Shown here: positions 4,721 to 35,300 of the stretch, piece after piece
Numbering within the stretch: the first letter of the stretch is position 1
Layout: each line of letters begins with the position of its first letter
Origin: Lama guanicoe
Lineage: Eukaryota
Reading direction: 5' to 3'
DNA: 61,000 nt
Assembly: GCA_013239625.1 (NCBI GenBank)
Contig: MU053911.1
Coordinates: forward strand, 122,697 to 183,696
Notes under the pieces: generated by a model
The model's input: only the letters and a program-made list of their open reading frames with translations
The model's database searches: none
Told to the model about the DNA's origin: nothing
Translations under genes and position numbers: made by a program

Positions 4721-4739
4721 ACAAGATCTCTGTGACATT

Positions 4740-4930
4740 CTTTCCTCTTTTAATTGACGTGTAATTGAGCGCCCATATTATATTAGTTTCAGGTGTACAA
4801 CATGGTGATTCAATTTTTTTATAGGTCAGAGTCCATTTAAAGTTACTACAAGCCAGTGGTTGTGGTTCCCTGTGCGGTGCAGTATACCCTTGTTGCTCAC
4901 TCATTCTATACATTGTAGTTTGTATCTCTT
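4740..4930 (-). mobile_element. Short L1 3'-end fragment
   Basis: tttttaattgacgtgtaattga...attagtttcaggtgtacaacatggtgattca...ccctgtgcggtgcagta is the reverse complement of a typical laurasiatherian L1 3' terminus. Confidence 0.75.
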
Positions 4931-4934
4931 CTTA

Positions 4935-6340
4935 TTTTTTTCCCCGAGATTTTATCTTGATCTTTCACTTGGAACATATTCCCCTCTTTCTTCATTTTAC
5001 TTGACTGCCTGTTGTTTTCTGTGCATTAGATGAAACAGTCTCCTCTCCCAGTCTCAAAGGGTTGGTCTCGTGTTGGGTGACCTTGTTTTTCAACCCTGTC
5101 TTCGTTCTGTGTTGTCTCTCAAAGCTGATTTTAGTTGTAATATCTGCTAGTAGTTTAGGGTGTTCCAACACCAGTCAGTGTCTCAGAGGGAGGATCTCAT
5201 TCAGTTTCCAGACTCAGGCTCATTTGAAGTGAGACTCTGCCTAACAGCTGCTGAGGAATGCACATGCGCACAGTTGTAAGGGACTGAGTGTGTGAGGCCT
5301 GCCGGCCCCCGGCCTGGCACAGTGGAGGTGGCCCCAGGACAGCAGCCACAAGAGTTGGGGTTCCAGACAAGTGTGCAGGCTCCATTTTGGGAGATACCAG
5401 TGAGCTGTAGCACGGCCAAGGGTGGGTGCAAGGTTGGCATCCTAGTCTCTGTGCCGTGATTGCTGCTCTGTAACCCAGGCGAGTGCCAAGGCTGAGGCCT
5501 GCACCGAAGGCCAGTGTTCCCTGGTCCAGCAGGTGGGGCCCTTTCACAGAGAGGCTGTGGGTGTGTTTCAGCTGCTGGCTACGCAGTGCCCTGGGGCTGG
5601 TAGCCTGCCGAGAACTGTCTCTCCGATTGTCCATCTGGTGGGACCCGAGGACACAAGCCCCCCTGGTTATCAGAGTCAGGTGGTCAGGGGGTACTCTGGA
5701 CGATGGCTTAAAACACTAGGGTGCCAGACACATAGGAGAGCTTCCCTCTGAGATACACTAGCGTCTGGAGCCTGGCAAAGGGAGAGCATGAGGACGGTGC
5801 CTGCTCTGTGACGTCTCAGGAAGGGTTTACCGTCAGCCCTAGATGTGTGTTTAGTTAGAACTTTTCCCCTCAGGCTGCAGCTGTAGTGATAGACCAGTGG
5901 GCCTCTTAGAGAAGGACTGGGCTTCCTGGGGCTGTGGCCTTTTGCTGTGCCCTGGGGGTGGTTGCTGTGCTGGTCACTGTCCTGTGGGGCTGGAAGCATA
6001 AGCCCACTGGCCACCAGAACCAGGCAATGTGGAGGTGTCCCTGGGTGTCCACTGCTACAGTCATGGCACCAGAGAAGGGCATAAGCTTCTTTCAAAGACA
6101 CCGGCGAGAGGGAGCGAGGCAGATGGGGAGGGTGAGGACTGTGCACGGGCCTCCGTTCCCCGAGTCCGGCTCTGGAGGCCCCTGTGAGCACAGAGCCAGC
6201 AGCCTGCGCGCAAAGCTCCTAGGCAAGCAGGGGCCTTGTTCTGAGCCAGACGGGGAGTGGGCTTCAGCCTGCTGTCCGTGTGGTGCCCTGGGAGCGGGCG
6301 TCTGTGAGGAACCACGTTTTTTTCCTTTCATTTTTGCTCA
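4935..6340 (-). mobile_element. L1 ORF1-start plus GC-rich 5'UTR remnant
   Basis: Begins like the ORF1-start/5'UTR junction seen at ~3640-3730 (ttggaacatattcccctctttcttcattttac) and continues in similar GC-rich UTR-type sequence. Confidence 0.6.
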
Positions 6341-8629
6341 GTTACTCTTGCATATGTAGGCACATAAATAGTTGAGTTGATTGACTTATCCAATTAAATC
6401 TTAAAGCTGTTACTAGTGAGTGGTCTGTTGAACACATCATGATTGTTTCATAGACCTGTTCACAAAGCAGTCTAGAAGCAGAAAGCCTGCGCCAGACCCA
6501 TCAGTGCAGCGTCACACTGTGTCAGTAAGAGGCTGCTGTCCAGCGAGAGTAAGAACAAACTGTGTCAGTGTTTCTTTCCAGTCGTTGACCTGAATTACTG
6601 AGAATTCAAATTCAGTGTACATGAGACTTATTTTTTTTATCTACACAGCTTAATACATAAAATTTTAGCTTATATTGGCCACCCAGAAAAGAGGAAAGAA
6701 TTACCTAGAAGCATGTATTTCTCTGCTTCATGGCTATTTTAAATAGTTCTAGATTACAGACCCAGATGAGTTGGCAAGAATTAGGTAATGAATGTAACGA
6801 CTAATCCAGTTTTAATGTCTGTAGTGATTGTTTATATTTTTAAAGCATATATGTTTTTAATGTTATATCAGAAAAAATTAGACTTTGGTTTATTTACTTG
6901 TTGCTTTATAAACTTAGGGGTTGATTTTTTCTGTCATTTATTCCTTTACATTATAAATAATGTGTGGTCACTATTATGGATATTTGAGAAGGTATAAGAA
7001 AAAGTCTTAATAATTATCTTCAGCTTTAATGGGACCATAACCAGCTTATGAACAGTGAAGAAATAGAAGCAAAGTGTGATTCTAGTATAGTGATGTGAAG
7101 TTTATGGCAGAACATGACGTACTACTGTACTTTTCCTTTGGAAACATGGTGAGGTTTAGGCTTTGAAAATGCTGGAAAGCCAGTAATTTGTCACCTGAAG
7201 AACATGAAGTGGTAACTTTTCATATAAGGTGTTTTTATAGTGTACATTTATTGCTGCTGATGAATTTGATAGAATCTTTATATATTTAGTGAGTGTCAGA
7301 AAGCAGAATCATTAACTTAAAGGTGCTTTAAAGAGAATCTCCAGTCCCTGTGAAGACGTAGAAAGACAGTCTCAGTTTCTTCCTATGATCTGTTGGAAAA
7401 GTCATGTTGAGGGGTTGTGGCAGGGTTGCCGTGAGTTACTGCTACGTGGCTGATCAGTGAGAGTCAGGAATGATAATAAGGACGTAGGAGAATGACCGAT
7501 GGGCCAGGTGGGACCGCAGACTGAGGACGGGACGTGGAAGAATAGATGAAGTTTCCTAACTTCAGGGGAAGATTATTTCAATTAAGTTTAGTTTAAATAG
7601 GGAAACGTGGGCTGACTGTCCATGCTCTGCAAGGCTCTGTGCTAGACATTTTGGGGAGTGTAAGATGGCAGCTGTGCGGTCATTGCCCTCCATGCATCGG
7701 CATCCCAGTGAGACGCAGGATGTGTGAAGAAATAAGTAGAGCACAATACAGAAGATGCATTCCACAGAAAGTTAATGAGAAGCTGCAGCAGATAGGAGGA
7801 ACGGTTGTTTCTGGCTGGACTGAGAGTAACACAGTGTTTAATTTAAGAAAGACAGTTGGGTGGATTTTAATGGGAATATGTGGAAACGGTGTTAGAAGTG
7901 CACTGAACAGTTGAAGCAAAGAGGAGTGCCTAGGATGTGCACAGTGTGCCAGGGAAAGGTCAGTTGTTACTTTTTCTGGAGTCTGTACTGAGGAGAATAG
8001 TGAGAGATAAGACATGGCATAGTGTCGTTTCAGCTTGCTAGCTTTTACAGAGTTGCCCTTAACAGCTTTAGGTTGAATATTGCTAAATAAAATAAAAAAA
8101 TCAAACTATCAAGCATATGGCACAATATTATTTATCGAACTTCCTTTTGGGTTACTTCTTAGACCCTAATAGAATTTCTGAAATACTTTCGAAAAGTGTC
8201 CCAAACCTTCAGAGAAGGGATGGAAGTAAAGTAAGGAGATCCCACCTAAGCAGACACATGGCATTGGTTACAATAAAGGACAGTTTTCGCACTTTACAAC
8301 ATTTAGCAGTTTATTTTGGCTTAGGGAATGAATTAGTGGCAAATATTTAATCAGACACAACAGATGCTAGTAATTTAGTGTTTCACTTCATGCGAGTTGT
8401 CTTTTCTTAATTGTTTTACGGCGTTGAAATTTACACCTTTTAGAAATGAAAATGTAAACTATTTGTGTTTTATTTTTAAGAGTTACACAGCCAAGCTACT
8501 TTAGTCTAAATCCTTTTTTTACGTTTTCCCCCAGTACTGATTATATTTGCTGTAAAGCACATCTGTACTAGAGAGGAATTACATTAATACATGTGCATTT
8601 CTTCTCCATAGATTAGATGATTAACTGTT

Positions 8630-8920
8630 AAATTTGCTCATTCCCTTATTCACTAAATTCATTAATTCAGCAAATATTTTTGTCACCTTCATGTGCAAGT
8701 GCTCTTTTGGGCTTTAGGTCTTACTGAGAAACTACAAATCAGGTCTGTTCTCCTGTGGTGTTGACGTTATAGTGACAAAGACTGGCAATAAACAAGTGAA
8801 ATAAATGAGCAAGGTAATTTTAGAAAGTAGTAAATGAAGACAATAAAACTCCCTGATACAGGGAGTCACAGGGAAGGATAATTTAGATTAGATGATCAAG
8901 GAAGACATTATGTGTGAAGA
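8630..8920 (-). mobile_element. Old LINE-2 3' fragment
   Basis: tcattcccttattcactaaattcattaattcagcaaatatttt...gtgcaagtgctcttttgggc resembles the L2 3' end. Confidence 0.55.
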
Positions 8921-9474
8921 AAAGGTATTATCTCATTATGAAATTAAAGAATTAAAATTATTTTCTCTTTCAAATTTTCACCAGAAGAAACTTCTACAAA
9001 TGAAAATTTACCTTGTCATTAAAAACACTAGGGGACGTCTCATAATTTCCTCAGTTAACTGTTGTGAATGGAGCATATTACTTACTAGTGACCCAAACTG
9101 CAGGCATAAGGTAGATTTTAAAGAGGAGACCTTACAAACTAAAACAGGAGAGGATACAATATCCCTTGAGCCCACTGTGGTGCTCAGCAGCTTTTTTAAC
9201 TAAACATGCTAGTGTTCCACAGCACTCCTGTGTGCACCACATTTTGTTTGGAGAGCACTTTACCCTCTCTGCATGCAGTACTGTTGGATGATCATAGCAG
9301 TTCAGACAGTTCTTCACCAGTTCATGTACTTGATCAGCAGGACAGCTGTCCAACCTGCATGGCTGTGTACCTTTGCTGGGCGTAATAATCCAGGACTTCC
9401 ATATCAATTACATGATCCCAGAAAGAAACAGCAAACTCAGTTGTAAGAAAAAATACGAAAACAGTAGCCCTGTG

Positions 9475-9954
9475 TGATGGATGCCTGAGACCACCCCCAT
9501 CACTAGGAGGATTCCCAGCACTCAGCATAGAGTAACTTGTTGCAGCAAAAGGACACAAAGCAAAGTCAGCAAGGGGAAGAATCCAGGAGACACCAGGTAC
9601 AGGTTCCCCAGAGTCCTTTTGCACTGGAGTCTCACAGGATGCTCTCGACTCCTCCAGCAGTGAACTGTGACAGCACAGGTGAAATGTCTGCAGGGAAGCT
9701 CGTTAGAGACTTGTGTAGCGCCCTCGGACTGTCATGTACCAAACCCCAAACTCCCAGGAGGAGAGCAGGTGTTCTGCAGGACCACTGTGTTGTACTAACA
9801 GTTTGGACACGGAAAACTGTTCTTATCAGTTCTGAGAATTGTAGGAACCCTCTCAAAGTCTAGGGCCCCAAATGCAGGCCAAGACTCCACCTTGCAGCCA
9901 GGTCTTTGGAAGAATAGCAGCTTAGTTTCTGCTGTTTGCACTCTTCTCTGTGCA
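9475..9954 (-). repeat. MER21-like LTR (3' LTR)
   Basis: Reverse complement starts TGCACAGAGAAGAGTGCAAACAGCAG...GCTGCTATTCTTCCAAAGACCTGGCTGCAAGG, like the recalled MER21 5' end; homologous to 17993-18507. Confidence 0.75.
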
Positions 9955-10449
9955 GTGCGTCCCCGTGGCCCTTGGCCAGGAGTAAAATTATTATCAGTGG
10001 GACCCCACACTCCAGGATGACACCAACATACAGCGTTGGTCCCAGTTAAGCCTTTTAGGAGCCCTGGACGTAGCTAGTTAAAAGAAATCCTGTTAACCAT
10101 ATCTTAGAAATCCGAGTGGCTGCCTTATTAGTTTTATAAGGGGGTACCAGTTCAGGTACTGCAAAACTCCGGCCAGTAAGTTACAGCTGACCTGAAGACC
10201 TTCCATGGCTGAGACAGTGTCATAGCCGAGACAGTGTCATGGCCGTCAGGGCACACACACAAAATATAATCACACAGAGCAGCACGTGGTACCCCTGGAA
10301 ACAAAGACAGTACAATGGCTGGAGCATCCCATGAGGACGTGCATTAGTCAGGCAGTAGCGGTAACAGGGCCCCCACATGACCTCCACCCTGGGCCTCTCA
10401 GCTCAGGGTCCTCAGTTCAGTACAGTTGATTTAGTTGTAGTAAGGTCTT

Positions 10450-13400
10450 TGTTTTATTTATTTATTTTTCTTGAAGTATAGTCGATTTACAATGTATTAA
10501 TTTCTGGTGTACAGCATAGTGATTCAGTTGTACATATATATATTCCTTTTAATATTCTTTTTTCATTATAGGATGTTACAAGGTATTAAATATAATTCCA
10601 TGTGCTATACAGTATTAACTTGTCTATTTTATGTATAGCGTTTAGTGTCTGCAAATCCCGAACTTCCAGTTTATCCCTTTCCACCCTCTCTCCCCTGATA
10701 ACCATAAGTTTGTTTTGTCTGTAAATCTGTTTCTGTTTTGTAGTAAGTTCATTTGTATTGTTTCTTTAGATTCCACATATAGGTGATATCATAGTCTTTT
10801 TCTTTCTCTTTCTGACTTACTTCACTTAATATGATAATCTCCAGGTCCGTTTATGTTGCTGCAAGTGGCATTATTTTATTCTTTTTATGGCTGCATAGTA
10901 TTCCATTGTGTATATATACCACAACTTCTTTATTTAATCATCTGTCGATGATATTTAGGTTGCTTCCATGTCTTGGCTATTGTAAATATTGCTGCAGTGA
11001 ACATTGAGGTGCATGTGTCTTTTCGAATTAGTTTCCTCCAGATATATGTCCAGGAGTGGGATTGCTGGATCATGTGGTAAGTCTATTTTTAATTTTTAAA
11101 GGAATCTCCATACTGCTTTCCATAATGGGTGCACCAAACTGCATTCCCATCAATAGTGTAGGACAGTTCCCTTTTCTCCACACCCTCTCCAGCATTTATT
11201 GTTTGGATTTTTGAATGATGGCCTTTCTGACTTGTGTGAGGTGATACCTCATTGTAGTTTTGATTTGCATTTCTCTGATAATTAGTGATATTGAGTGTTT
11301 TTTCATATGCCTGTTGGCCATTTGTATGTCTTCATTGGAGAATTGCTTTTTTAGGTTATTTGCCCATTTTTGGAGTGGGTTGTTTGTTTTCTTGTTATTG
11401 AGTTGTATGAGTTGTTTGTGTATTCTGGGAATTAATCATTGTTGTATCATTTTCAAATGTACTTTCTTATTCTGGAGGTTTTCTTTTTGTTTTGTGTATA
11501 ATTTCCATTGTTGTGTAAACAGCTTGTAAGTTTGATTAGGCTGCACTTGTTTATATTTGCTTTTATTTCTATTGCCTTGGTGGACTGTCCTGGGAGAACA
11601 CTGGTACAAGTTATGCCGGAGAATGTTCTGCCTATGTTCTCTCCTAGGAGATTCATGGTGTTCCGTATTAAGTGTTTGAGTCATTTTGAATTTATTTTTG
11701 TGTATGGTGTGAGGGAGTGTTCTAATTACCTTGATTAACATGAGGCTGTCCAGCTTTCCCAACACTACTTGTTGAAGAGACTGTCTTTTCTCCACTGGAT
11801 ATTCTTACCTCCTTTGAAGATTAATTGACTAAGCCTGTGGGTTTATTTCTGGGCTCTCTATTCTGTTCCATTGATCTATATGTCTGTTTTTGTGCTAGTA
11901 CCATGCTGTTTTGATTACTGTAGCTTTGTAGTATTGTCTGAAATCTGGGAGTGTTATTCTCCCAGCTTTGTTCTTTCTTCAGTATTGCTTTGGCAATTCT
12001 GGGTCTTTTGTGATCCCATATAAATTTTAGGATTATTCTAGTTCTATGAAAAATGTCCTGGGTAAATTGACAGGGATTGCATTAAATCTGTAGATTTCCT
12101 TGAGTAGTATGGCCATTTAACAATGTAAATTCTTCCAATCTAAGAGCATGGGATATCTTTCCATCTCTTTAAGTCATCTTTAACTTCCCTGACCAGTGTT
12201 TTGTAGTTCTTCACATGTAAGTCTTTCACCTCATTGGTCAGGTTTATTCCTAAGTATTTTATTTTTAAATACGATTTTAAAAGGGATTTTTGTTTTTTAC
12301 TTTGCTTTTCTGAAATTTCATTGTTAGTGTGAAGAAATGCAACAGATTTCTGTATGTTAATGTTGTATCCTGCTACCTTGCTAAATTCTTATTTCAGGTC
12401 TAGTAGTTTCTGTGTGGAGCCTTTACGACTATCTATATATAGCATCATGTCATCTGCATATATTGACAGTTTTATCTCTTCTCTTCCAATTTGGATCCCT
12501 TTTATTTATTATTTATTGTGTGATTGCTGTGGCTAGAACTTCCAATACTATGTTACGTAGAAGTGGTGAGGGTGGGCATCCTTGTATTGTCCCAGATTTT
12601 ACCAGGAAAACTTTCAGCTTTTCACCACTGAGTATTATGCTGGCTGTGGGTTTGTCATATAGCTTTTATTATGTGAAGATATATTTCCTCTATACCCAGT
12701 TTGGTAAAAGTTTATATCATAAATGGGTGTTGAATTTTGTCAAATGCCTTTTCAGCATCTATTGAGATGATCTTGTGATTGTTGTCGTTTCTTTTGTTGC
12801 TTTGGTGTATCACATTGATTGACCTGTATATGTTCAATCATCCTTGCGTCCTTGGGATGAATCCAACTCGATCATGGTGTATGATCTTTTTTATGTGTTA
12901 TTGGTTTCTGTTTGTTAAATTTTGTTGAGAATTTTTGCATCTATGTTCATCAGTGATATTGGCCTGTAATTTTCTGTTTTGGTAGCATCTTTGGTTTTGT
13001 TATCAGGATGATAGTGGCTTCATGGAATGAGTTTGGGAATGTTCCTTCCTCTTCCGTCTCTTAGGAGGTTTTGGGAAGGATTAGTATGAGTTCTTTGTAT
13101 GTTTGATAGAATTCCCCAGTGAAGCCATCTGGGCCTGGATTTTTGTTTGCAAGGAGTTTTTTTTTTTTTAATTGCTGATTGTATTTCACTTCTAGTGATC
13201 AGTGTGTTCAAGTGCTCTATGTCTTCTTGATTCAGTTTTGGTGGACTGTATGTTTCTGGAAACTTATCCATTTCTTGTAAGTTGGCCACTTTGTTGTCAT
13301 ATAGTTGTTCATAGTATTGTTACATATTTTTAAAATTTCAATAGTGTTGGTTGTAATTTCTCCATTTTCATTTCTTATTTTATTTATTTGTGTCCTCTCT

Positions 13401-16400
13401 CTCATCTTCTTGGTGAGCCTGGCCAAAGGTTTGTTGATTTTGTTTACTCTTTCAAAAAACCAGCTCTTGGTTTGATTGATTTTTTTCTATTTTTAAATCT
13501 CCGTTTTATTCCTTTCCTCCCAGATCTTTTAAATTTCTTTCCTTCTTCTAACTGTAGGTTTTGTGTTTCTTTTTCTAATTCTTTTAGGTAGTAGGTTAGA
13601 TTGTTTATTTGAGATTGTCCTTGTCTTTTGAGGAAGGCCTGTATCACTATGAACTCCCCTCTTAGGACTGCTTTTGCTGCACCCATAGATTTTGTGTGGT
13701 TGTTCTTACAGTGTCGTTTATCTTAAGGCATTTTAAAATTTCCTCTTTGATTTCATTGTTGACCCTTTGTTTTTTTAGCAGCATGTTGTTTAGTCTCCAT
13801 GCGGTTGTTTTTTTCTTTTTTCTCTTTCTGTGGTCGATTTCTGGTTTCTTGGCATTGTGGTCAGAAAAGATGCTTGAAATAATTTCTGTCCTCTTAAATT
13901 TATTGAGGCTTCTTTTGTGTCCGAGTTTGTGGTCTATCTTAGAAAATGTTCTGTGTACACTTGAATGTATAGTCTTTCTTTAGGGGGATGTAAGGTCCTA
14001 AAAATATCAACTAAGTCTAACTGTTCTAATATGTCATTTAGTATCTCTATTGCCTTATTGATTTTCTGTTCAGAAGACCTGTCCAATGATGTTAGTGGGG
14101 TGTTAAAGTCTCTTACTATTATATTCCCATCGGTTTCTCCCTTTATATCTGTTAGTATTTGCTTTATGAATTTGGGTGCTCCTATATTGGGTGCATATAT
14201 GTTAATGACTGTAATATCCTCTTCTTGTATTGCTCCTTTAATCATTATTATAGTGTCCTTCTTTATCTTTCTTTATGGCCTTTGTTTTAAAGTCAGTTCT
14301 GTCTGATACGAGTATTGCTGCTCTTGCTTTCTTGTCATTTCCATTTACATAAATATCTTCTTCCATCTTACTTTCAGTCTGTGTGTCCTTTGCCCTAAAG
14401 TGAGTCTCTTAAAGGTGGTATATTGTGGGCTCTTTTTTGTTATCTAGTCTGCCACTCTCTGTACTGGACAGTTTAGTCCATTGACTTTTACAGTAATTAT
14501 TGATAGATGTCTGTTTATTGCCATTTTAAACCTTGTTTTCTAGTTGTTTATTATTTATTTGTTTCTTTTTCTTACTGTTTTTTCCTTTTTGAGTTGATGA
14601 TTTTCAGTGAAGCTTGATTTCTTTTATATGTGGTTACCCTGTTTTTCAAGTATATTAACTTATTACTATATCCCTTTACTTTAGACTGGTAACCATATGG
14701 GCTCATACACATCCTAAAAAAACAAAAAATTACATTTTCTTGCTTTTCTCTCTCACATTTTATGATTTTTATGTCCTCTTTTACACCTTGATGTTTATGG
14801 GGGCTTTTTGTTTGTTTGTTTGTTTTTGCTGTTCACTGTTGTTACTACATTTCCAATTGTGATTTTCTCTTCTATAGATTCTGCTTCTTTTCTATTTAGA
14901 AAAGACCTTTCAGTATTTCTTTTATGGTAGGTTTACTATTGCTGCGTTTTTTTAGTTTTTACTTGTCTGAGAAATTCTCTCTCCTTATGTTCCACCTGAT
15001 AGTTTTGCTAGGTAGTAGGTTTTTCTCTTTCAGGACTTTTAATATATCTTGCTGCCTTCTTGCCAGCAGTGTTTCTATGGAAGGTTTCCTGGTAACCCTT
15101 TCTCTCTTGCCACATTTAGAATCTTTTCATAATTTTTAACTTTGAACGTATTAATACTAATAGGTCTTGGTGTAGCTCTGTGTTCATCTTGTTTGGGACC
15201 CTCTGTGCTTCCTGCACTTGGATACCTGTTTCATTCTTTAGAGACAGGAATTTTTCAGCCATAATTTCTTCAAATACATTTCCGATCTTTCTCTGTTCTT
15301 TCTTCCCCGTCTGGGGCCCCTGTTGTGCATAGACTGGCGCACTGTGTATTATCCCTTAGGGCTCTTGTATTGCTTTCAGTTTTTTTCTTTTTTCTGTCTA
15401 CTTTTCTGATTAGGTTTTTCCCATTATCCTGTTTTCTAAATCACCTACTTGTTCTTCTGTATTACTTGGTCTGCTTTTGACCTCTTTTAGATTGGCTTTT
15501 ATCTTGGCAGTTGAGTTTTCTGATTTTAATTTTCTCCTCTTTATAGTTTCTATTTCCTTTTTCAAATATTCTGCATTTTTGTTGATAGCTCCTTCTGTGT
15601 CCTCCAGAGCATTTATCCCCTCCTTTTTTAACTCAAGTTCTGGTAGACTGTAGAGGTCTATCTCTTGGTTCATTCTTTCGGGGGATTTCTCTTGTTCTTT
15701 TAACTGGGAGTGATTCCTCAGCATCTTCATTTTACTTTCTCTAACTCTATGGATTTAGGAATAATAGTTACCTACTGTAGTCTTTTTATGAGGACAAGCC
15801 CGCGTGTAGACTGTGTGCATCTGATATTTTTGTTGTGAGAGCTGCTTTTAGTGTGGATGGTTGCTGTGCCTGTCCTGCATGTGTGCTGGCTGCTACCCAC
15901 TAACTGGGGATGTGGCTGGTGATGAGTTTTCCAGAGCCTGCCCTGGGATGTTGGGTGGGGCCTCCTCTTTGCTCTGTAGTTGTCACATCACTGTTAGTGG
16001 CTGGGTCTGCTCCCCAGTTCTTGGAGTAGAAACCCCTAGGTCAGTTTGACTGCTGTGCGTGGTTGGTGGGGCTACCCTGCTTCCACCTGGAGAGGAGATG
16101 TCCCCTGGGAGGTGCCCTTTGTGGTGTCATCGCCTGTCCCTCATTACACACAGCTTGTTAATAATAGGGCTTTCAGGATCAAGCCACACCCTGTGGGCTT
16201 GCAGAGAAGGAGTTTGCCATGGGGCTGTTGCACAGCCCCTTTGCGAGAGTGCATTCACCATGAGGTCTTCATGGCCGAGCAACGCCCTGTGGGCTCGTAG
16301 AGGAGGAGGCCGCTATGGCAGCGTCACCTTAGTCAACTGGGGAGTCTCTCCAGTGGGCCTGGGCTCTCCTGGACACACTCCCCCCGATGCTGCCTCTGTG

Positions 16401-16862
16401 CCGTCAACCCCAGGTCTCTTCCTGGCTCCATTCTCTGCAGCCCGAACTCAGCACTCCATCCCGGCACAGCCTGCTCGCCCCTCGGGCTAGGGACCCCATG
16501 GACTCCCTCTGCCCTGGTTTCTCTCCATTTTGTCTGCCCCAAAGCGGGCCTCTGCTCGCCTCTGGCCTCTGAAGCTTTCCTTCCGTCCTGTGACCCCCTG
16601 CTGCAGAGGGGGCTCTAGTGTGAGGGCGCCCTTCCTCCTCTGCCGCTCCCTCCCCAGAGGACAGGACCTGCCCTGATGTCCTTTTGCTTTTGCCTTTTTT
16701 TTTTTTGGTAAAGATTTACATTGTAGTTCCACTTGCACGAGATCTTCCGTCAGAGCTTGGTGGGTGTTGTGTGAAAACTATTCCACGTGGAGGTGTATTT
16801 TTGATGTGTTTGTCAGGGAGGTGAGCTCCATGTCCTTCTACTCCACCTTGAAGCCCCTCCCC
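10450..16862 (-). mobile_element. Near full-length (~6.4 kb) decayed LINE-1
   Basis: T-rich tail at ~10450; ORF2 fragments (MIKGAIQEEDITVINIYAPNIGAPKFIKQ endonuclease; [17 protein letters not shown]); ORF1 fragment 15410-15730; GC-rich 5'UTR ending in reverse-complement GGGGAGGGGCTTCAAGGTGGAGTAG. Confidence 0.95.
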
Positions 16863-17992
16863 GAGGCTTAGAAACAGATAGCCTTATTCCAGCCGACAGT
16901 CAAGGCTTTCCCAAGCTGCATTTCTGTCAGTTTTAGAGCCCAAATGGACTTGCTCAAAAATGGGCACGTTGGGATGGAGAATCATCATATTCTAAGGATC
17001 AAACATCTATTGGCAACTGAAAGTGCTTTTTAAAACCCCAAGAGTATATCTTCAGTTAGGGATTGCCTCTTTTGTTCCTGTTGTCTCTCTTTTCTCAGAG
17101 GTTCCAGTAGGCAAAAATCACGAATTATGGAGTCTTGTCCTCTTTTCAATATTCAAAAAACCTAAATAACCAGCCACCCCTGGTGTGAAGTGCCAGGAGG
17201 ATGTGTCCTGTTAACACTTTCCTTTGCAGCTTTCCCTGATCAGGATGATGTCTAGCATTTGTGACATTTAAAACATGGAACATTCCATGTCAATTTTTAT
17301 CATATATTCACATCCAGTAGCTACAAAATACAAAGCCATGAAAATAATTCCCCTTTTGTCCTCGTTGCACATTTATACTAGCTGCAAACTTAGCATTTAC
17401 AGGGTTAACATTACGGCTGCAGGGGAATCACAGGTGAGACTCACGGGAACTGGTCGGAGCTTCAGCAGTGGCAGGGCGGGGCTGAAGGGAACACTGGCGT
17501 CCCTCCTCCTCCACCTCCATGCCCGCGTCTTCCTCTGGTTTATTTAAAGCGTTGTTTCAGCTCTAGGAGCTTCTGTAACTTTTCTTTTTCCACCCAGAGG
17601 AGAGAGAAACAACAAACTAATTTTTATTGCCTTTGGCCCATCCAGGGCTCACTTTTGGGAAATTTTCCGGTCCTCTCTCCTCCCACTTGGTGGAGAGAAC
17701 AAAAACCAGAGACGTCACCCAGGCTGCACCTTTTCCCCTCGCTTTACTCAGCGCCAGAAGAGCAGCCAGGGGATCCAGTAAGTCAGTTCTTCTGGAGTTG
17801 AATGTACCCTTTTCAAACTCCGTAGGTACCTTTACCTCTCACACCAGGCAGCGGCCCAGCTGCTGTTTCATACAGAGCAACTGCCTGGTGGTCAAAAGTT
17901 AGTCATATCCCATCCCAGCCTTTCATGACTCCTTTCCCCCCTATTGTAGTGAGTCAGGGGCCATTGTAGTGAATCTCACTTCTGATGGCAGC

Positions 17993-18507
17993 TGTTTTGG
18001 GGATCCCCAAGAGCATCCTTAGATACAGTGATTTGCTAGGAGGAGTCAGAGGACGCAGTACACAGTCATCATGGTGTTACAGGGAGAGGATACAAAGCAA
18101 ACTCAGTAAAGGGAGAAGGCATGTGGGGCAAAGTCTGGGAAAAATCGGGTATCGGCGTGTCTGAGTCCTGTCTCAGTGAAGCCACACTGGATGCTCTTGC
18201 TCCCTCCAGCAGTGCACTGTGACAGCACAGGTGCAGTGCTGTCCACCAGGGAAGCTCCTGAGACACTCAGTACCCAGGGCTGTTACTGGTGGGTGGTCAA
18301 ACAGACCGAAAACCAGACTCCTAGAAGGAAAGCAGGTGTTCAGCACAAACCCCATTGTTTGTACAGTCTGGGCCCAGGGAGGCACTCTGGCAAGTTTCAG
18401 CGTGGTGGGAACCCTGGCAAGTTCCCGGACGCCAGCCGGGAGCCAGCCTTATAAGGAGGACCTCCCGAGGCTGGATGTCTCCACGCGGCTCACCTCCTTT
18501 CTGCACA
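17993..18507 (-). repeat. MER21-like LTR (5' LTR)
   Basis: Shares ctccagcagtg(a/c)actgtgacagcacaggtg, agggaagctc and agcaggtgtt blocks with 9475-9954; adjacent PBS. Confidence 0.75.
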
Positions 18508-18924
18508 CTGTGTAAGACTCTCAGTGCAGAGTAAGCGTAGGGAGGCTTGAGGTCTCAGCCTTGGGGAAGCTGAGGAGGACAGTGCTGCAGCTCCAGCCTC
18601 CGTCTCAGTTTGTTCTATCTGTAACTCTTAACAATCATGTCAAACTTTGTATCAACCCAACAATTTCCCTCCCTTCTTTTGCTGCAGAGGCCAGCTGTAG
18701 AGCAGCTCATCCCGGCAGTTTTCTCCAGCCCCTTTCAGGCTTTGGTGTTGGCCTGGGAACTGCCAGCCATACTCATGCCATTTTTTCCAGACTTCACTGA
18801 ATCTGACCTTTTTCTCCTTCTTTAGGTAAAGAGTGCTCTAGCCACCTACTTACAACTTACTGCTCCACGTTTGCCTTTTGTAGCAAATCTCTTGCTCAAG
18901 GATATCTAAGAAATCTTCCTCTTT

Positions 18925-19915
18925 CTGGGCTCTTGTCTCTGGATTGATTATGTGGCTGTCCCATCTACCTGGGAGTCCCAAAGCCAGTGTTTGCTCATTT
19001 TGGTAGGTTGGGCTGGATCCCAGAGTTACTGGCTGAAGGGCCGTGGTGGCCTGGAGCTGGTGTCTGCTTGCTGGTGGGTGGGCTGGGTCCTACCACGGCA
19101 GGCTGTAGGCTGTGGTGGTCCTGGGGCTGGTATCTGCTCAGTGATGGACAGGGACATGTCCCAAGGTGGCTGTGAGCTCAGGGGGTCTTAAGGCAGCTGG
19201 TGGTATGCTCCTGCCTGGAGAGCTTCCTGTTACTAGGTGTCTGAATTCTGGTGCTGACAGACGGGTGGGTAGGGCTGGGTCCCAGTGCTGGTGAGCTAGA
19301 GGCCGTGTTCCAAAGTGGCTCCCGGCACCACCAGTGCCACGTGATGGAATGAGCTCACTCAAACGGCCGCCAATGTCTGTGTCCCCGTGGGGAGCTCTGA
19401 TGCCTCCTGCCTCTGCAAGGCTCTCCAAGATTAGCAGGTAGGTCTGACCCAGGCTCCTTTCAAGTTACTGCTTCTGCCCTGAGTCCTGGGGGCATGAGGT
19501 TGTGTGTGTTTCCTTTTAGAGTGGAGTCTATCTCCCGTAGCCCACTGACTCTCCCCAAAGTGAGTCCCACTGACCTTCAAAGCCACATGCTCTAGGGCTC
19601 ATCCTCTTAGTGCATGACCCCTGGGCAGGGGAGCCCGAAGTGGGTTTGGCCCCCTGGCTCCTCTGGGAGAACCTGTGCACACATAACTGTCTTCCCTGTG
19701 TGGCCTGTCCGCTCGGGGTGCACGTCTGCATTGTACCATGACTCTGCCCTTCCTGCTTATTAGCTTGTCGTGGTTCGTCCTTTGTGTCTTTAGTGGGTCT
19801 TTTCTGTTGATCTTCCTGCTTTTCCCATCAGTAGTTGCTCTGTAAATAGGTATGATTTTGGTGTTCCTGTGAGGGGAGGTGAACTCAGGGTCTCCCATTC
19901 TGCATCCTGGCCACG
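18925..19915 (-). mobile_element. Isolated L1 5'UTR remnant
   Basis: Resembles 3900-4720; ends with the same motif (gtgaggggaggtgaactcagggtctcccattctgcatc vs gtgagaggtggtgagctcaagggctgcctgttctgccacc). Confidence 0.75.
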
Positions 19916-20115
19916 CTGAGCCCATGTGTGTGTCTGGAAGCCCAGCAGGTGTCTTGGCTTCCTATCCAGCATCCCTTCATGTTTGTGTTAATACTCAGTA
20001 ATGAACACCTGTAACTGTGTATTCACTATTCTTATAGATTGTGAACATGAGTCTTCAGTTATAAATAAAAAATGTTCTTCAGGTAACCTAATACAGACGT
20101 TTAGTAATTCTAAAG

Positions 20116-20410
20116 CTCAGAGAAGGGAAGAGCTAGCCCTGATACTTAAGATCTTTCACAGATCCTCGAGTCTCAAGATGGATCACATTTTCTGAAGAGT
20201 TCAGATGACGTTTTAGCTGATGGAGATCTCTTCCATATACTTTCATCAGAGACCCGTGGTAAATCATTTACAAGAGTATTACCGAGCAAGGAAATGAAAG
20301 ATTCAGAGTCTCCCAGAGCATCACTTCCAGGGAGTGACAGACCAGCAGTACCATTCGTCGCCCCCACTGTTGTTATTAAAAGAAAGCCACTGGAGACTGA
20401 CATCTCAAAG
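20116..20410 (+). CDS. CCDC7: CCDC7 exon (295 nt, phase 2 to 0) with in-frame stop: (S)[64 protein letters not shown]...[11 protein letters not shown]
   Basis: Acceptor taattctaaAG|C at 20114-20115; donor AAG|GTgaga at 20411; TAA at 20147-20149; rest of the frame is open and resembles recalled human [30 protein letters not shown]. Confidence 0.82.
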
Positions 20411-23400
20411 GTGAGACACAGTGCAGTAACTTGGAAGCTATTCATTTTGTGTTGCTAGACCCCTTCAGTGCTGTTGGTAAATGCTATTCAAAACATCAAT
20501 ATTTCTTACTTAAACAGAATAAAACGTTTGCCTTTGGATACAACCTGTGTTACGTTTAGGATTTTAAAGTGATACTTGGGAATCAAGGGAATAGTTTGAA
20601 ATAAAAATTGTAATCTGTATCAACAAAGAAGTTGTGGCTTAGAGCTTTAATGATAAATTAAAAGACACAATTTCTGACTGAGACAGGGAAATTTTTATTT
20701 CACGTTAATACACAAAAATGAGTTTTCTTTGTTAAGGTATTTGTGAAAGCATAGTCATTTTGAAATAACTTTATATGCCTTAAACGAACCCTAGAAAATT
20801 ATTAGAATTGCTTTTGTTAAAATAGTGTTTAATTAAGAAATTCTTGGTGTAAAAATTCTGGGAAGAAGAGAAGTGAAACTATGGCCATACATATTTAACA
20901 TATGGTCACAATGTTTTTACTGTAGAAGTTATTAAAGTGGCCTTATAAAAATAATTTTGTAAAGCTGCTTGAGTTTGTCTAGAGATTGAATCACGTGAAG
21001 ATATAAATCTAAGCTAGAATCATAATAAAAAGTTATTGACACGATTTGTTTGGAATGATTTAAGAGGAAGAGCCCAGTAGTGCTCAGGACCCCGCCACAC
21101 TCCTAAGTTTCCCAGATGCCAGGAAGAAGTGAAAAGTCAAATGTTTCTGTGATGACAGAGCAGATATCAAAGATGGTAATTAGAGTTCTGAAATGTATAA
21201 TCTGTGGTTATTTTAACTTTTGTTCTTAAGGCTACCATTTCAGAAGAGAATTTACAAAGTAAGACTGAAAAACAGACTTACCAAGAAGAAAGAGAATTGG
21301 ATGGTAAGAAGATTTCCTGTTTCATAAGATAAAAATGTTAATGATTGTGTGTTCCCATATTATAACTCTAAATAAATGAATTGAGAACATGACTTAAACG
21401 GAGAAATAACTTCTTAGATAGTCGTAAGGTAATATACAAGTATATTGACCAGTATATAAAAACTAACCTGCCGAGTTAACATATTACTCAGTCTATCTCC
21501 ACTAAAATTTATGTAAAAGGGCCTTGATGGCTCTGCCTCAACCAAATGACAGCGTTGAGTGTTGTGAGTCCTTAACGTGGTATTACGCCAGAGGCCATCA
21601 GGGTACAGCAGGAAAAAAGGTGACTTGAGTAATTACTTCTTTAGCTTGATTCTTTAGGTGTTTTATGTATAATATATTTTTTAAAATAGTAAATCTGTTC
21701 CTTTTTTCCAACATACATAGCTTTTGTGACCAACCCTTGTCTGATTGCATTGGCCTGGACTTCCAAAATAGAATTAAATGATTGTGATGCAGAGGGAAGA
21801 CTATGCTCTTCTTTTGTGCACTGAAGCAAGAATGCCTTTACCTGTCCCCCTAGGATGATTGGTTGTCTGAGATGAATATGTCTTCTTATGGTCAGGACAC
21901 TTTCTTTTGTTCATGGTTTTTAAATGAATTTTTACCAGTAGTTGAACAGAATTTATAATCAATTGACAAAAAAATTTTTTTCATTGTGGTAAAATATAAT
22001 AACATAAAGTGACATTTAATCATCTTTAAAGTATATGATTCAGTGGCATTAAGTACATTCACAGTGTTGTGCAGCCGTCACCACATCTGTTTCCACCACT
22101 TTCCGTCACCCAGTAAGGAACTTGTTGGGCAATGACTCCCATGCACGCCTCCATCCAGCCCCCGCTCACCTCTAACTTGACTTTCTGTCTCTATGAACTT
22201 GCCTGTTATGTTTCATGTAAGTGGAATCATACAATATTTGTCCTTTTGTGTCTGGCCTGTTTCACTTAGCATAATTTTTTCAAGGTTCATCCACATTGTA
22301 GCATGTGTCAGAATTTTATCACTTTTTATGGCTGTATGTACATACCACATTTTGTTTATCCGTTCATCTGCTGATGGACTTTTAGGTTGATTCCCCCTTT
22401 TTGGCTATTGTTCATAATGCTGCAGTGAACATGGTGTACTGTATCTGTTTAAATCTCTGTTTTCAGTTGTTCATATAGGAGTGTAACTACTGGATCATAA
22501 GGTGATTCTGTTCGGCTTTTGGAGGACCTGCAACAACTGTTTTCCATAGCGACTGCACCATTGTGTGTTCCAGTAGCAGAGTACAAGGAGTCGCATCCTT
22601 GCCAGCGCTTGCTTTCCTTTTTCTTTAAGTTGTGATTCTCGTAGGTGTGAAGTATATCTCATTGTGATTTTGATTCACATTTCTCCGATTACTAAAGATG
22701 TTAAGCGTCTTTGTGTGTGCTTGTTGGGAATTTGTTGGTAATCTTTGGCAAAAGATTGGAAAAAATGTCCATAGAACTCCTTGACCCATTTTTTAATTGA
22801 GTTGTTTGTTTTGCTGAATTGTAGAGGTTCTTTATATATTCTGGATATTAAACCATTTTTGGCTATTAGGGACCCTTTGCAATTGCATATGAATTTTTGA
22901 ATCAATTTTTTTTCCATTTTTGCAAATAGGCCTTTCAGATTTTGATAAGGAATGCACTCAATCTATAGATGGCCTTGGGAAGTATTGCCGTCTTAATAAC
23001 ACTAGTCTTCCGATCCATGAACCCAGGGTGCCTTTCCATGTATTTAGTTTACTTTAGCAATGTTTGGTAGTTTTCAGTGTAGAGTTCTTGTAATTCCTTG
23101 GTTAATCGTTTTCCTAAGTATGCTACTCTTTTTGATACTCTAGTAAAGAGAATTGTTTTCTTTATTTTTAGATTACTCATGGCTGATGTTTAGAAATTAC
23201 AACTGATTTTCCGTGCTCATCTTGTATTCTGAACCTTTGCTGAATTTATTAACTTCAGTGTTTTTATGCAGGGTCTTCGGGGTTTTCTGTACATAGGATC
23301 ACGTTACTGTGAATAGAGATAGTTTCACTTCTTCCTTGCTATGTTGGCTGCCTTTGATTTCCTTTTGTTTTCTCATTGCTCTGGCTAGAACGTCTAGTAC

Positions 23401-26349: not shown

Positions 26350-29300
26350 TCATACGTATATATACCTACATGCACATATATGCGTATACATATAAATAGC
26401 CATGTTTAGAAATCGAGAGTTCTCATGAGCATCTTCAATTCAGTCCACCCCCTCCGGTCGTGCTTTTCCTTTCCTTTCTTTTGTATGTATATGTCCTTTC
26501 TTCCACAGTGCACTGTGCTTGACTCTGAACAACAGCATCACATCTACGCATCTGATGTATCCTATAATGCTGCTAAGTTTGTTTCAGAGTTGCTCACCAC
26601 ATCGCCTTAGGAAAACCAACCTGCTAGAAAGATTTCATGACTCTGTCTGCATCTCGCGCTCTTGACTCAGCCAGGCTGTGCGCCAGATTTGTACTCTTGG
26701 GTTACTTGAATTAGTGCTTTGTTTGTCCCTTCAGAAGATTTGTTTGTTTATTTATTTTCAGTTTTGCTTCCCTTTTATTATTCTATTGATTTAATTTTAT
26801 TTTGGGGGGAATATGTACAACATTAACCTACTTCTCAAAGTATAATTATGCAAAAGGTATGTAGTTGCCCCCTCGGTATCCACAGGGGTTGGTTCCAGGA
26901 CCCTCCTGGGTACCAGTGTCCACAGATGCTCAGGTCCCTTGTGCAGAATGGTGTAGTGTTTGCACAGGACCTGTCCTCATCCTCCATATACTTTATTTTT
27001 TTCTCCCATGTACTTTAAATCATCTCTAGATGGTAATACCTAAGACAATGTAAATGCTATGCAAATAGTTATAAATACAATGGAAATGTTATGTTGCTGG
27101 CACATGGCAAATTAAGGTTTTCATTTTTGGAACTTTCTGAAATTTTTTTCTGGGTATTTGCAATCTGCAGTTGGTTGAATCTGCGGATGTGGAACCTGCA
27201 GATGCAGAGGTATTTCTCTAAGGTATTTCCTTAGAGAAATACCTCTGGCATTCCTTCCCTTCACAGTCCCCAGGCCTCCTGTACCACCCCCTTGAAGGGA
27301 ACTAAGTATATTGCTTTCTGACTTATCTTTCTTGTGTTTCATTTTGTAAAAGTAAATGTCTGTTTCTTTCCATTCCACCCCCCTCCTTTCCCATTTGTTC
27401 TTACTCAAAAGATAGCATACTGGGTGTCCTCTTTTTCATTTTTTTCACTGCACATTATGTCCTGGAAATGATAAAACAGCTTAAAACACAACCTCATTAA
27501 AACTGTTCTCACAATTTTCGTGCCAGATCTAGCATTATGGTAAATTAATTATAACTATAAAAATGAAACAAAATGCGGCTGTGTACTTGTTTTACATCTA
27601 GAGATTTCTCAGTAAGTCTGTTTTTCTGTTTAGTGGACTAAATGAGTCTCTTTATGCAGCTCAGGATGAGGAGTCAGATGGCAGCCTTCTGCCTGAGAAT
27701 GAATTACTGTCAAAACCTGACACAGCAATGTTGAGACAAAGAGGAAACAGACGCACTGGTAAGAATGATAATCATGGGTATCTTTAAATTATTTTAAGTT
27801 AAGTTTATCAAAAGATCTTTTTTTGCTTTGGATTTCTTTAAATAATGGGTAAAACAACTAAGATCAAGAAGGAAATAGAATAATTGAACAACACTGTAAA
27901 AAATGTTTGTTTGTGCATGTATTTTGTAGACAGTTTACACTTTGATGTTAATTATGAATACCCTAAGATAACTAAAGAACTGACATGGAAGCTTTGGTAC
28001 CTTTTGTTTGGTATTTGCGTGGTGAGTATAACAAGACTGTGTAGCAAGACTGCCTCCACACACACTCGTGAAAACTACTCACACCAGTTTCCCACTTGAC
28101 TATCATGGTCTGTTCAAGTAGATAGTTTGCTGCTGTAGCTTTGCAGTCCTTTTCCTGTAAAGTTGCACAAATTAGAAGACATTTTGCTGATTACTTGGCA
28201 TATCCAGAAGTTTCATAATAGATCTGTTTTTCTGTTTAGGATTTCTTATAACTAAGCCAAATGATACGCTGTCTGTTAAAGATCAATGGCCTGAGGACAT
28301 AATTTTAATGTTAAGAAGCCAACTTCAAATTAAGAATCTCAGAGCTGCCGGAAGTGACAGTTTTGATAGTAAGTAACTAACTTAAACTCTTGTAAAATTA
28401 TTTTCAACTAAATTCAGCAGAGCTTTGTTCCATGGTTCATGGATATGTCTCCCACTATTTTGCTCATTGGTGATTTATCTGTGTGCTCTATAATTCCTGA
28501 GTTAGCTGGGTTAAATTCCCTGCTAAGATTATGGATTTCTCTCTTTCTTCTTATGTTTGGTCAAGTTTTGCTTTATATCTTACCATACTTCATTATTGAC
28601 ATTTACATAAATTTAAAATTAATAGCTCTCCTAAAGGACAGATCTTTTTATCCCAGTGAAGGGATCTCCTTTATCATTTTTACAGTTTTTGTTTGTATTT
28701 TTTTACCTTAAAAAACTACCATGCTTGCTAGTAATGTGACCCTAACGTCTGGCTGGTTGTTTGCATGACACATTTTTTCTATCCTGTTGCTTTAACCTTT
28801 TTGTATCATTACGATTTTTCTGTGTCTCTAGTATATAGTATAGTATATAGTATGTAGTATAGCTTGTACTGTATATTTTTCAAATTCAGCCTGATTCTTT
28901 GTCTTTTAATTAGCACTCATAATCACACTTGGTCAAATTTTGATATTCTGAGATTTAAGTTGTACCATTTTCTTTGTGCTTTCTGCCTGATAAGTTTCTT
29001 TTAGTCTCGTTTCTGCTTTTTATTTTTAAATCGTTAACGTATTTTTTCTTAGACATATCTGGTAACCCTAGTTTAAACTTTATTATAAAGTGTGAACATG
29101 CCAAGAAAACTAGAGAATATCAACCGATATTAAATGATTAGTTAAAATTTTTTGATATGCCAGAGTATCTAAAAAATAACAAGACTGGTTCTGTTTGCAC
29201 AAGTGAAAACACATATACTCACGCATGTTTATAATTAAGTAGGTAGTGTCTTTTAGTAGTTTATTACCACAAAGTGTGCTTTGCTTGTATCATTGAGCAA

Positions 29301-32300: not shown

Positions 32301-35300
32301 ACCTTACTATTTTTTTCCTTACCTACTAATAAGTAATCTATCAAAGATACTTTAAGATCATGCAGATATCCTATTCCCTGTCAAAATTGCCTAGATTCAG
32401 GATGTGTCACAGTGCTTCCCTGAACTAATCTCTGCTTTGAAGCTTCCACAATGGTGGTTCCCCCACTCTGGCACCACCCCTGCGTTTAAGCAGTTGGCAC
32501 CTGGTCTGCCCTGCCCTCACCCGCACTTCTTTCTTCCTCCACTTACTGTTTTGCTGTTGATATGAAGCCATGGATTCTCGTTTTCTCAGCGGTTTTATAG
32601 CTCATACTTTTCTTCTTTTTTAGTTCTAGAATTATCCTAGCCTTGGCAAGAAGGAATTTGTTCAAGATAATTTCTGTGTCCTTATATGACCCCAGTGCTC
32701 CTAGTCACTGAGAAACGCCCTGCTATTTAGTATGACAAGACGTCCCTCGCCGACTTGCACGTTTCCTGTCTCATAGCTGACGTCAGCTGTTGTTCCTAGG
32801 AGCCTTGATGGTTTTAAATGGGAAATGTTGTTAGAAACAAAGATCTGATTGTGCCCATGGAGTGTCTTTGAGGTGTTCTGAGCACCCAGACTAGAAAATA
32901 CACACAAACACGTGCGAATATACTAACATACATGTACATATTCATACACACATAGACCTGCACACACACTCGTGCGTATGTGCATGTGTGTACACACAGC
33001 CATATTTAGAAGTGATGAATTCCTGCAGATGCTTCTGGTTGCGGTCCACCCCTCGGGCGTGTCCTTTCCTCCCTCTGTGCATGGCATCCTTTCTTTCATG
33101 GTGTAAACCCTAACTCTGTACAACACCCGCCTGTTTACTTACTTGCTCAGTCCTGTGTGGCCCTGGCGTTGCTTGTTAACTGATTAGCTCACAGCAGCAG
33201 AGAAGCAAAGCAGGTGGAAGAGTCCGTGATTTTCTCACTCTTCCCGGAGACGGAGATACGGCGCTGTGTTCATGAGGTGGTTGGATCAGGGCTTGCTTTC
33301 TTTTTTAGTTCATTTGGTTCAGTTCTTAAGTTGCTTTCATGTTTACTGCCCTCTTCACATCCTTGTTAGTATAATTGGGGGGGGGATATGCAGAATATTC
33401 ACCTACTTCTAAGAGACACAGAGAGAGCTAGAGCGCGCGCATCCTGTCCTGAACCCCTCCGCCTGCTTCCTCCGTTTGCCTTCTGTTGTGTGGGACTGCC
33501 GGTTTATTGTTTTCTGTTTCATTGTGTAATGTAAGTGCTTCTGTATTTTTCTCAGTTTTCCGCCTAACTTCCCCTCCTTTCTTACTTACCTCAAAGGTAT
33601 TACACTGGATACCTGCTTTTTCACTTTTATTTTTCACTTGACATTCTCTCTTGGAAATTCTTTCATGTCAGTTTGGGAGAACTTTTTTATTCACTTTATG
33701 GCTATGTGTACAGCTGTTTATGTCAGATTATGTACCATTATTTATACCACATCATAGACTATAGTATATATCTTGGGTTATTTAAAGAATAAGTGATGGA
33801 TATTTTAGGTGGTTTTGAATATTATGCAATTATAGATGATGGTATAATGAGTAACCTTGTGCATATGTGTTTTCATTATTTGGCCTATGATTATATAGTA
33901 ACAAAGTATAAATAACAAAACATGAGATTTACAGAAATGTATTCAAAACACTCATTAAAACTTCTCTTGATTTTCATGTCGTATCTAGCACTATGGTAAT
34001 TTATTTTTAACTTTATCAAAATGAAGGATAATTCTGCTGTACACTTGTATGAAGTTGGAGTCTAGGTATTTCATAGTAGATCTGTTTTTTGATTTAGTAG
34101 ATTCAATGCATTTCTTTATGTAGGTTATGATGAAGTGTCAGATGAAAAGGATTCAGTAGCAAAAACTCAAATGCCAGTAAAGAAACAAAGAACTCTCAAG
34201 AGTGAAAGACTCTCTAGTAGGTTTAGTGATCATCAATATTATCAGACACACGGTTTGCAAATGTCTCCCTCTATTCTGTAGGTTGTCTCTTTACTCTCCT
34301 GGTTGTTTCCTTGGCTGTGCAGAAGCTGTTTAGTATGATGCAATCATGTTCGTTTTGTTTCTGTTAGTTGTATTTTGGGGGTTGTTAAAAAAAAAGATCA
34401 TAAATAACTTCACATTATTTTAAATTAAACTCCTCGGAAGATCTTTTTTATTTGCTTCCTGGAGATGTATTTCAGCTTATACTTTGTGGAAATTTTACGT
34501 GTTGATTTGAAGTGTGAGTACCCTAAGATGACCAGAGAAGAGAAGTGAAATTATTGATACAGTTTAGTTGGAATTTCTGATCATAAGACTATTCCACGTT
34601 CAGTATCTGTTAAGGGCAATCCCTTAACAGGTGGATAGTTGACTCACAAAGGGTGTGTGTGCCTTTCAGCCAGCCCTGGGAGATTCCTGTTGCAAAAGGC
34701 CAACAGACCTCTGACCTGTGTTAGTGTCCTTTTGCAGTAGTTCCAGTGGGTGAAGAGATGTTCCTGAGCTCGGTAACCAGAAAGCAGCAGGGGTCAGAGA
34801 GGCCCAGGGAAGGCAGCGCAGGTGGCCTGTTGGAAGTCCTCTGGAGCGTCTTGCTGGTTGGGTTTCCACTCAGAGGGAACAACCCGTATGCTCACCCCGT
34901 CCACGTGAGCCGTCAGGTCCCTGCGGGAAGAACGCAAGTATGTTAGTAGTCAGAGTCCCACCAACCTTCAGGCTCTGTATAACTTGGGGAAGAGAGGGCC
35001 AAGAGATTTGCAGAGGTCTCCTCTGGAGTAAGATGTTACATTTGCTGTAGGTCACATGGCCTGGAGTTTCACTTGGACATGAGGCCCTTGCCTGTATTAA
35101 TGGCCCAGCCGCGTTGTCCCATGTGGATGAGCAGGAGTGCAGCCCTGTGGGATGGCGCCTTCGTCTGGGCCCCGCAGAGGGATGCTGTCAGTGTAGTGGA
35201 AGGCTGGGAGTCCCTCTGAGCGGGCTTTGTCCACGTCCTGCCCGACTGGCTGAAGACACGCAGATGGGGAACTTAGGGAGCCCTGGGGAAGGACGTTAGT

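Follow-up and report, generated by a model that had tools for sequence, protein, structure and literature searches.

Does the guanaco carry a damaged CCDC7 gene? We analyzed 61,000 nucleotides of Lama guanicoe DNA (the window, G000:C1924:122697-183696), in which an earlier note had flagged a TAA codon of CCDC7 at 20147-20149 on the forward strand. The TAA is present in the context quoted (CCT GAT ACT TAA GAT CTT TCA CAG), and an ATG follows at 20294-20296 within GAA ATG A, as described. The note had given a serine at this codon of the human protein, and this was right. Human, carnivore, and primate proteins read AISDLSQ or ALPDLSQ at the site, with Ser as the codon replaced, and horses agree (Ser is opposite the TAA in the protein alignment for zebra and donkey). 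The exon itself is 99% identical to alpaca CCDC7 and 93-96% identical to Camelus protein models. Whether the TAA matters depends on whether it is read, and so we examined how this exon (exon Z) is joined to the one before it. The features are listed in Table 1.

Table 1. Features of the CCDC7 locus, numbered by position in the window
Feature	Position	Strand	Remarks
Old L1 5'UTR remnant, antisense to CCDC7	19010-19916	-	5' end ~250 nt upstream of used acceptor
Ancestral acceptor AG of exon Z	20114-20115	+	In frame only with a phase-2 donor (exon Y); AG>AC in camel-type RNA
Former coding stretch, 46 nt	20116-20161	+	Intronic for long isoform
TAG ending short LREGKS product (exon X + old acceptor)	20134-20136	+	Precedes the TAA
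Candidate branch point CTGAT	20139-20143	+	A 19 nt before used acceptor; inferred from yUnAy consensus
Flagged TAA (TCA in camel-type RNA)	20147-20149	+	A in DNA run X14, C in 3/3 RNA runs
Minor acceptor AG, out of frame	20149-20150	+	CAG to AAG here through C>A change
Long-isoform acceptor AG	20160-20161	+	RNA contigs X16/X15; 5/6 camelid models; sole frame-keeping AG of 10
Coding exon Z', 249 nt, phase 0-0	20162-20410	+	Joined to exon at 21231 in X15 and X16 RNA
Internal ATG, camelid specific	20294-20296	+	Start of older alpaca "CCDC7-like" model
Coding exon	21231-21303	+	Camelid models, RNA contigs
Coding exon	27660-27758	+	Continues the loose ends of X15 and X16 at 21303
Coding exon	28240-28368	+	Camelid models
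Repeat-type exon, 93 nt, open, AG/GT	34124-34216	+	Absent from camelid models
Coding exon, 111-nt repeat type	39002-39112	+	Camelid models
Coding exon, 111-nt repeat type	43617-43727	+	Camelid models
Coding exon	48024-48128	+	Stronger-looking in-frame donor also at 48122
Diverged repeat-type exon, open, weak donor	50989-51096	+	Absent from camelid models; probably A6 of the earlier note
Coding exon, 111-nt repeat type	55659-55769	+	Camelid models
Coding exon, 111-nt repeat type	59554-59664	+	Camelid models
Coding exon	60005-60136	+	Camelid models

The preceding exon (exon X) lies upstream of the window, at C1924:116660-116881, and ends CAG/GTAAGA (the slash marks the splice boundary) in phase 0. 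There are 10 AGs in 20100-20165, and when they are read from exon X the frame stays open via 20160-20161 only. Entry at the old acceptor, 20114-20115, yields a product ending LREGKS, with its TAG stop at 20134, ahead of the TAA. The same ending occurs in goat and Kogia models and in two Logan contig proteins. Entry at 20149-20150 causes a frameshift (IFHRS...) and a stop at 20193. Two AGs in purine-rich sequence, 20121-20122 and 20124-20125, would put the TAA in frame, and the remaining five near exon Z lead to early stops. The flagged TAA is not a stop in the frame of the likely main mRNA. Calling it in-frame is correct for the ancestral frame set by exon Y (see below) but not for a frame read from exon X via any acceptor seen in use. 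Another TAA that is in frame upstream of the old acceptor, absent from the earlier note, lies at 20111-20113, immediately before AG 20114-20115.

Two acceptors had been suggested as a bypass of the stop, 20149-20150 and 20160-20161. The second is borne out: it keeps the frame, is used in protein models, and forms the junction in camel-type RNA. The first, with its frameshift, does not serve; its equivalent is used in the Delphinus X16 model. At 3' splice sites, CAG is usually preferred over AAG. Therefore, the C>A change at 20148 would be predicted to weaken this competing acceptor, making TCA>TAA neutral or slightly favorable for splicing. Branch points follow the consensus yUnAy, and a candidate lies inside the 46-nt stretch between the old acceptor and the one used. 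The 5' end of exon Z is splice-labile across mammals. Models of true seals and of one dolphin enter it further in (Q/T[QH]DKSL), and one porpoise isoform enters at Q/SVGTLL. We rejected a 45-nt exon at 20038-20082, which needs a 33-nt intron and where camel-type RNA has a 1-nt insertion and has lost the GT.

The RNA evidence comes from assembled contigs of three runs (X15, X16, and X18), all with alleles that match Camelus proteins and are therefore of Old World camel type. Record 19 of X16, at a depth of 143, matches the window from 20159 and continues spliced to the exon at 21231, and 29 of the 30 letters of its loose end are the end of exon X. Because CAG 20159-20161 is common to both sides, the junction is exon X to 20162, and this camel-type contig is where use of the downstream acceptor was seen in RNA. 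Of the X15 contigs, one (depth 353) begins at 20159, and an unspliced one, which runs unbroken through 20116 and 20151, ends at 20188; such an overlap is expected where two paths meet. All three runs have C at 20148 (TCA), and both runs that cover the old acceptor, X15 and X16, have AG>AC there (G>C at 20115). Therefore, Old World camel-type alleles keep the Ser and have lost the old acceptor, whereas the guanaco genome keeps the acceptor and has the TAA. The 46-nt stretch has been altered separately in each lineage. The X18 piece (20124-20527) is unspliced and served for the allele only; its loose end resembles what we take to be a template-switch adaptor. Within 20162-20410 there are seven differences from camel-type RNA, six of which change a residue by our reading, a sign of the fast evolution that is common among testis genes. 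At 20306, the guanaco window and DNA run X14 encode Glu, and camelid models have Gln.

In horses, carnivores, and primates, exon X is followed by a small exon, exon Y, and then by exon Z from 20114-20115. Exon Y is 35-38 nt long and runs from phase 0 to phase 2 (11-12 codons plus 2 nt), as deduced from the proteins. The peptide after it, SEKK...AISDLSQ, maps to 20116-20161, and the Ser of AIS corresponds to the TAA. These outgroups translate the 46-nt stretch from the upstream acceptor. We classed the junction after exon X in stored proteins that could be assigned to a group, most of which are computed models and many of which are isoforms of one gene. Exon Y was present in 3 of 3 perissodactyl, 19 of 24 carnivore, and 108 of 113 primate proteins, and in three of four tree-shrew proteins (the fourth ends within Y). 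Four bat and anteater proteins had no anchor and were left unscored. The cetartiodactyl set comprised 41 proteins (6 camelid, 12 ruminant, and 23 cetacean, with three Logan proteins placed by cluster and no pig), and exon Y was found in none of the 41. Their junctions were at the equivalent of 20160-20161 (23 proteins), at the old acceptor with the LREGKS ending (4), at the 20149-20150 acceptor (1), or elsewhere (13).

Searches for exon Y gave a similar picture. With the zebra region that contains Y as the query, there was no cetartiodactyl among the best 120 of 274 matches, although such a query favors Y-bearing proteins. The Y peptides of 13 proteins were combined into a profile, whose best score in the 25.9-kb intron between X and Z was 15.9 bits. 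This is within the range of shuffled sequence (maxima with a mean of 11.6, an SD of 2.9, and a highest value of 21.5), and a diverged 38-nt exon could be missed by such a search. That best match, near 7738-7773, was dropped because it falls inside the shuffle range. A candidate at 6755-6786 (32 nt, AG/GT ends, and the right phases) scored ~0 against the Y-peptide profile, and a BLOSUM scan of all AG-GT mini-exons gave no candidate for Y. From 1 to 19916, the window is intron, much of it minus-strand L1 in several pieces, and one L1 insertion could have removed exon Y. The genome also has a partial CCDC7 duplicate on the minus strand of another contig (G000:C7565:17889-40553, 87-91% identity; L003, L005, L006, and L008). 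It has copies of exon X, the preceding exon, and the intron as far as window position 6317, with one 1.26-kb piece twice in tandem. It ends there and contains neither Y nor Z. No second copy of exon Z was found in the genome, and so there is no retrocopy that records the junction.

We propose that the TAA arose as a harmless substitution in sequence that had become intronic, in a gene where the loss of exon Y was compensated by an acceptor shift. We put the probability of this reading at roughly 0.88. By parsimony, we infer that the common ancestor of camelids, ruminants, and whales lost exon Y or stopped using it. A shift of 46 nt into the exon, to acceptor 20160-20161, would have kept the frame, with the long protein becoming shorter by 27-28 residues and the released 46 nt ceasing to be translated in the old frame. 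The gain of TCA>TAA in South American camelids would have come later, and Old World camels would separately have lost the old AG. The reading builds on the exon phases, the open frame, the two lineage-specific changes, and the X-to-20162 junction in camel-type RNA, all of which were observed, and it supposes that TAA-bearing species splice in the same way as that RNA. Because camelids, like cattle and whales, would splice past the TAA, the stop is most likely harmless. CCDC7 in this camelid is probably neither broken nor split. The idea of a recent, damaging nonsense allele lacks support, since the codon is not read from exon X.

One comparison fits this proposal less easily. The released stretch has the TAA here and AG>AC in camel-type RNA, but in a takin model 14 of the 15 old-frame residues are identical to zebra, which suggests more conservation than free decay of the stretch predicts. 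Overlap with splice signals, the LREGKS route in ruminants, or an unseen ruminant exon Y could account for it.

The frame beyond the TAA is intact. The earlier note had described eleven open exons downstream with good splice sites, except for one that it named A6, and we agree. All eleven are in the window, and nine match camelid RefSeq models, have AG/GT ends, and are free of stops; the weak donor is that of 50989-51096. Joined to 20162-20410 and 22 more exons, the last near 230,000 of C1924, exon X gives 980 codons to the first stop, of which 906 stop-free codons follow exon X. There were no stops or frameshifts in the 2718 nt of downstream coding sequence, and 898 of 972 aligned residues (92.4%) are identical to a Bactrian camel model (P0006). 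The X15 pieces diverge from the introns here by 2.85% substitutions and 0.33% indels. Had the downstream exons been neutral since the split of camel and llama, ~5.6 lesions would be expected and the chance of none would be 0.004, a rough figure. Over one fifth of the branch, 1.1 lesions would be expected and the chance of none would be 0.32. Therefore, if the TAA is young, the neutral-decay test loses its power. Neither frame of the exon matched a Pfam family. The CCDC7/Biot2 family, PF15368, is precomputed on the matched proteins.

Several observations concern the gene models and the assembly around these exons. In the part of the gene that corresponds to window 55770-59553, the newer alpaca model (P0001) includes 64 residues (805-868) that lack a close match anywhere in this genome; the window contains no N. 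These residues are also missing from Camelus models and from the older alpaca model, and the block is possibly a copy-number difference of repeat-type exons. The tail of P0001 (residues 1063-1121) matches dozens of places in the genome. Therefore, it is repeat-derived, probably from L1, and the end of the model is doubtful. An N run directly follows the window (C1924:183697-190029). Another lies upstream, at C1924:59418-60696, where the exon for residues ~155-170 was not found.

CCDC7 has short (~480-amino-acid) and long forms across mammals. The short forms of primates and carnivores terminate within exon Y. In contrast, cetartiodactyl models lack Y, and some of their short forms end in LREGKS via the old acceptor, a path that camel-type alleles no longer offer. 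In even-toed ungulates and whales, the switch between short and long CCDC7 may have been rewired after the loss of exon Y. The choice between LREGKS and the long form would then fall to two acceptors 46 nt apart, Old World camels would have closed the short route and South American camelids kept it, and in camelids an exapted L1 antisense promoter together with the internal ATG might further supply a C-terminal-only protein. The short product would be a BioT2-only protein ending in LREGKS. We regard this scheme, taken as a whole, as unlikely.

Its last element bears on the note's suggestion of a real split into two products. This locus was formerly annotated as two genes, CCDC7 and C10orf68. 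In the older alpaca RefSeq annotation, the gene was split into a 528-amino-acid CCDC7 and a 482-amino-acid "CCDC7-like" protein that starts at the ATG at 20294 (XP_031526848.1 and XP_031526847.1). However, the newer alpaca model, XP_072811194.1, joins both halves, and the Met is camelid specific, aligning with Ile in whales and cattle. A split lacks support as the main product. A second product beside the long mRNA is a different matter. An internal transcript might start in the antisense L1 5'UTR, run unspliced into exon Z, and encode, from ATG 20294, a C-terminal product. In that case there would be a real split, but one independent of the TAA. L1 antisense promoters reportedly drive chimeric host transcripts (PMC4908685, PMC3985663), and the likeness is that here, too, the 5'UTR of an L1 within the intron faces away from the gene, with its 5' end just upstream of an exon and RNA cover across the interval. 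The remnant gave 40 scored matches among 1103 candidates; the non-self matches have 69-73% identity, and many end at query 640-668. ORF1-like sequence lies downstream in the same orientation in one of five L1 copies tested (L017). The unspliced X15 contig (757 nt) covers 19850-20188 at a depth of 84.7, compared with 8-10 in the next introns, and the unspliced X16 contig (626 nt) covers 19850-20175 at 9.2, compared with none. If collinear, these contigs begin near 19430 and 19550, inside the L1 5'UTR. However, contigs give no start, strand, or level, and retention of the 3' end of the intron accounts for the same data. The element differs from the described chimeras in being old and CpG depleted (observed/expected, 0.21), it is known here from sequence and contigs, and 13 other ATGs lie between 19433 and 20294. 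We find such a transcript quite improbable.

Still less can be said for translation of the TAA in South American camelids, with truncation of a real share of transcripts. The route would be a phase-2 upstream exon joined to the old acceptor, or AG 20121-20122 or 20124-20125. The old AG is intact in this genome, and the exon three further upstream ends in phase 2, such that a three-exon skip would be in frame. Against this, no exon Y was found in the 25.9-kb intron, none of the 41 cetartiodactyl proteins has such a junction or begins exon Z at 20121-20122 or 20124-20125, the newer alpaca model enters at 20160-20161, and the downstream frame is intact. We consider this route highly improbable.

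Finally, an assembly error or a rare private allele is barely tenable: the base at 20148 is C in camel-type RNA, the C allele could occur in runs X12 and X13, which contain 0.95 of the words, and rare variants get dropped from contigs, but DNA run X14 has A at 20148 and ten other DNA runs agree with the assembly. The X14 contig (depth, 33x; a different organism label, and possibly this assembly's own source) spans the whole stretch with one other difference in 1651 nt. All 41 sampled words are present in each of X1-X10, which carry four organism labels and come from three studies. Each of these ten is flagged as a possible source, yet not all of them can be. Assuming random placement, there is a ~4% chance that no sampled word covered 20148. 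Contigs were compared base by base for 4 of the 24 listed runs; X11-X13 have a word share of 0.95-0.98, and the site may be polymorphic. Runs X20 (share, 0.07) and X21-X24 (0.00) were given no weight as evidence. The TAA is real DNA. An assembly error, one of the explanations that the earlier note had left standing, is contradicted by these runs and is very unlikely as its source.

With the compensated loss of exon Y as the preferred reading, the locus can be set beside known cases. CESAR addresses evolutionary splice-site shifts in conserved coding exons, with 360 real shifted exons used (Sharma et al. 2016, PMC4914097), and a 429-bp acceptor shift in SPATC1 is cited there. The cases are alike in that an acceptor is displaced into its exon, which becomes shorter, and a conserved gene seems to carry an inactivating mutation when the human gene is projected onto it. 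However, the simulated shifts in that study were multiples of 3, whereas the CCDC7 acceptor moved by 46 nt, which preserves the frame only if an upstream phase-0-to-2 exon is lost as well. The CCDC7 case is thus a splice-site shift of the cataloged kind coupled to the loss of a frame-changing exon. We found no publication on the cetartiodactyl change in exon Y or the acceptor, or on this junction, although supplements could hold TOGA-type calls. As for the gene, passages in the literature report Biot2 as testis enriched (PMC7838428), a CCDC7 phosphopeptide in boar sperm (PMC8322956), and CCDC7-C10orf68 junctions as "fusions" in human cortex (PMC6987184); in the passage of PMC12019854 that names it, CCDC7 is solely a STRING neighbor. 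The literature that we read establishes no function for the long C-terminal region, and so the biological consequence is probably small.

For annotation, the locus calls for caution, because projecting the human protein onto this genome gives a false nonsense call. It also provides an example of compensated exon loss, with the freed stretch altered differently in two sister lineages. The side result is a change in CCDC7 shared by cetartiodactyls, in which exon Y is absent and the acceptor has moved by 46 nt. Further along the gene, two 84-nt exons (C1924:214501-214584 and 222109-222192) have identical translations, a recent exon duplication within a series of 84-nt repeats.
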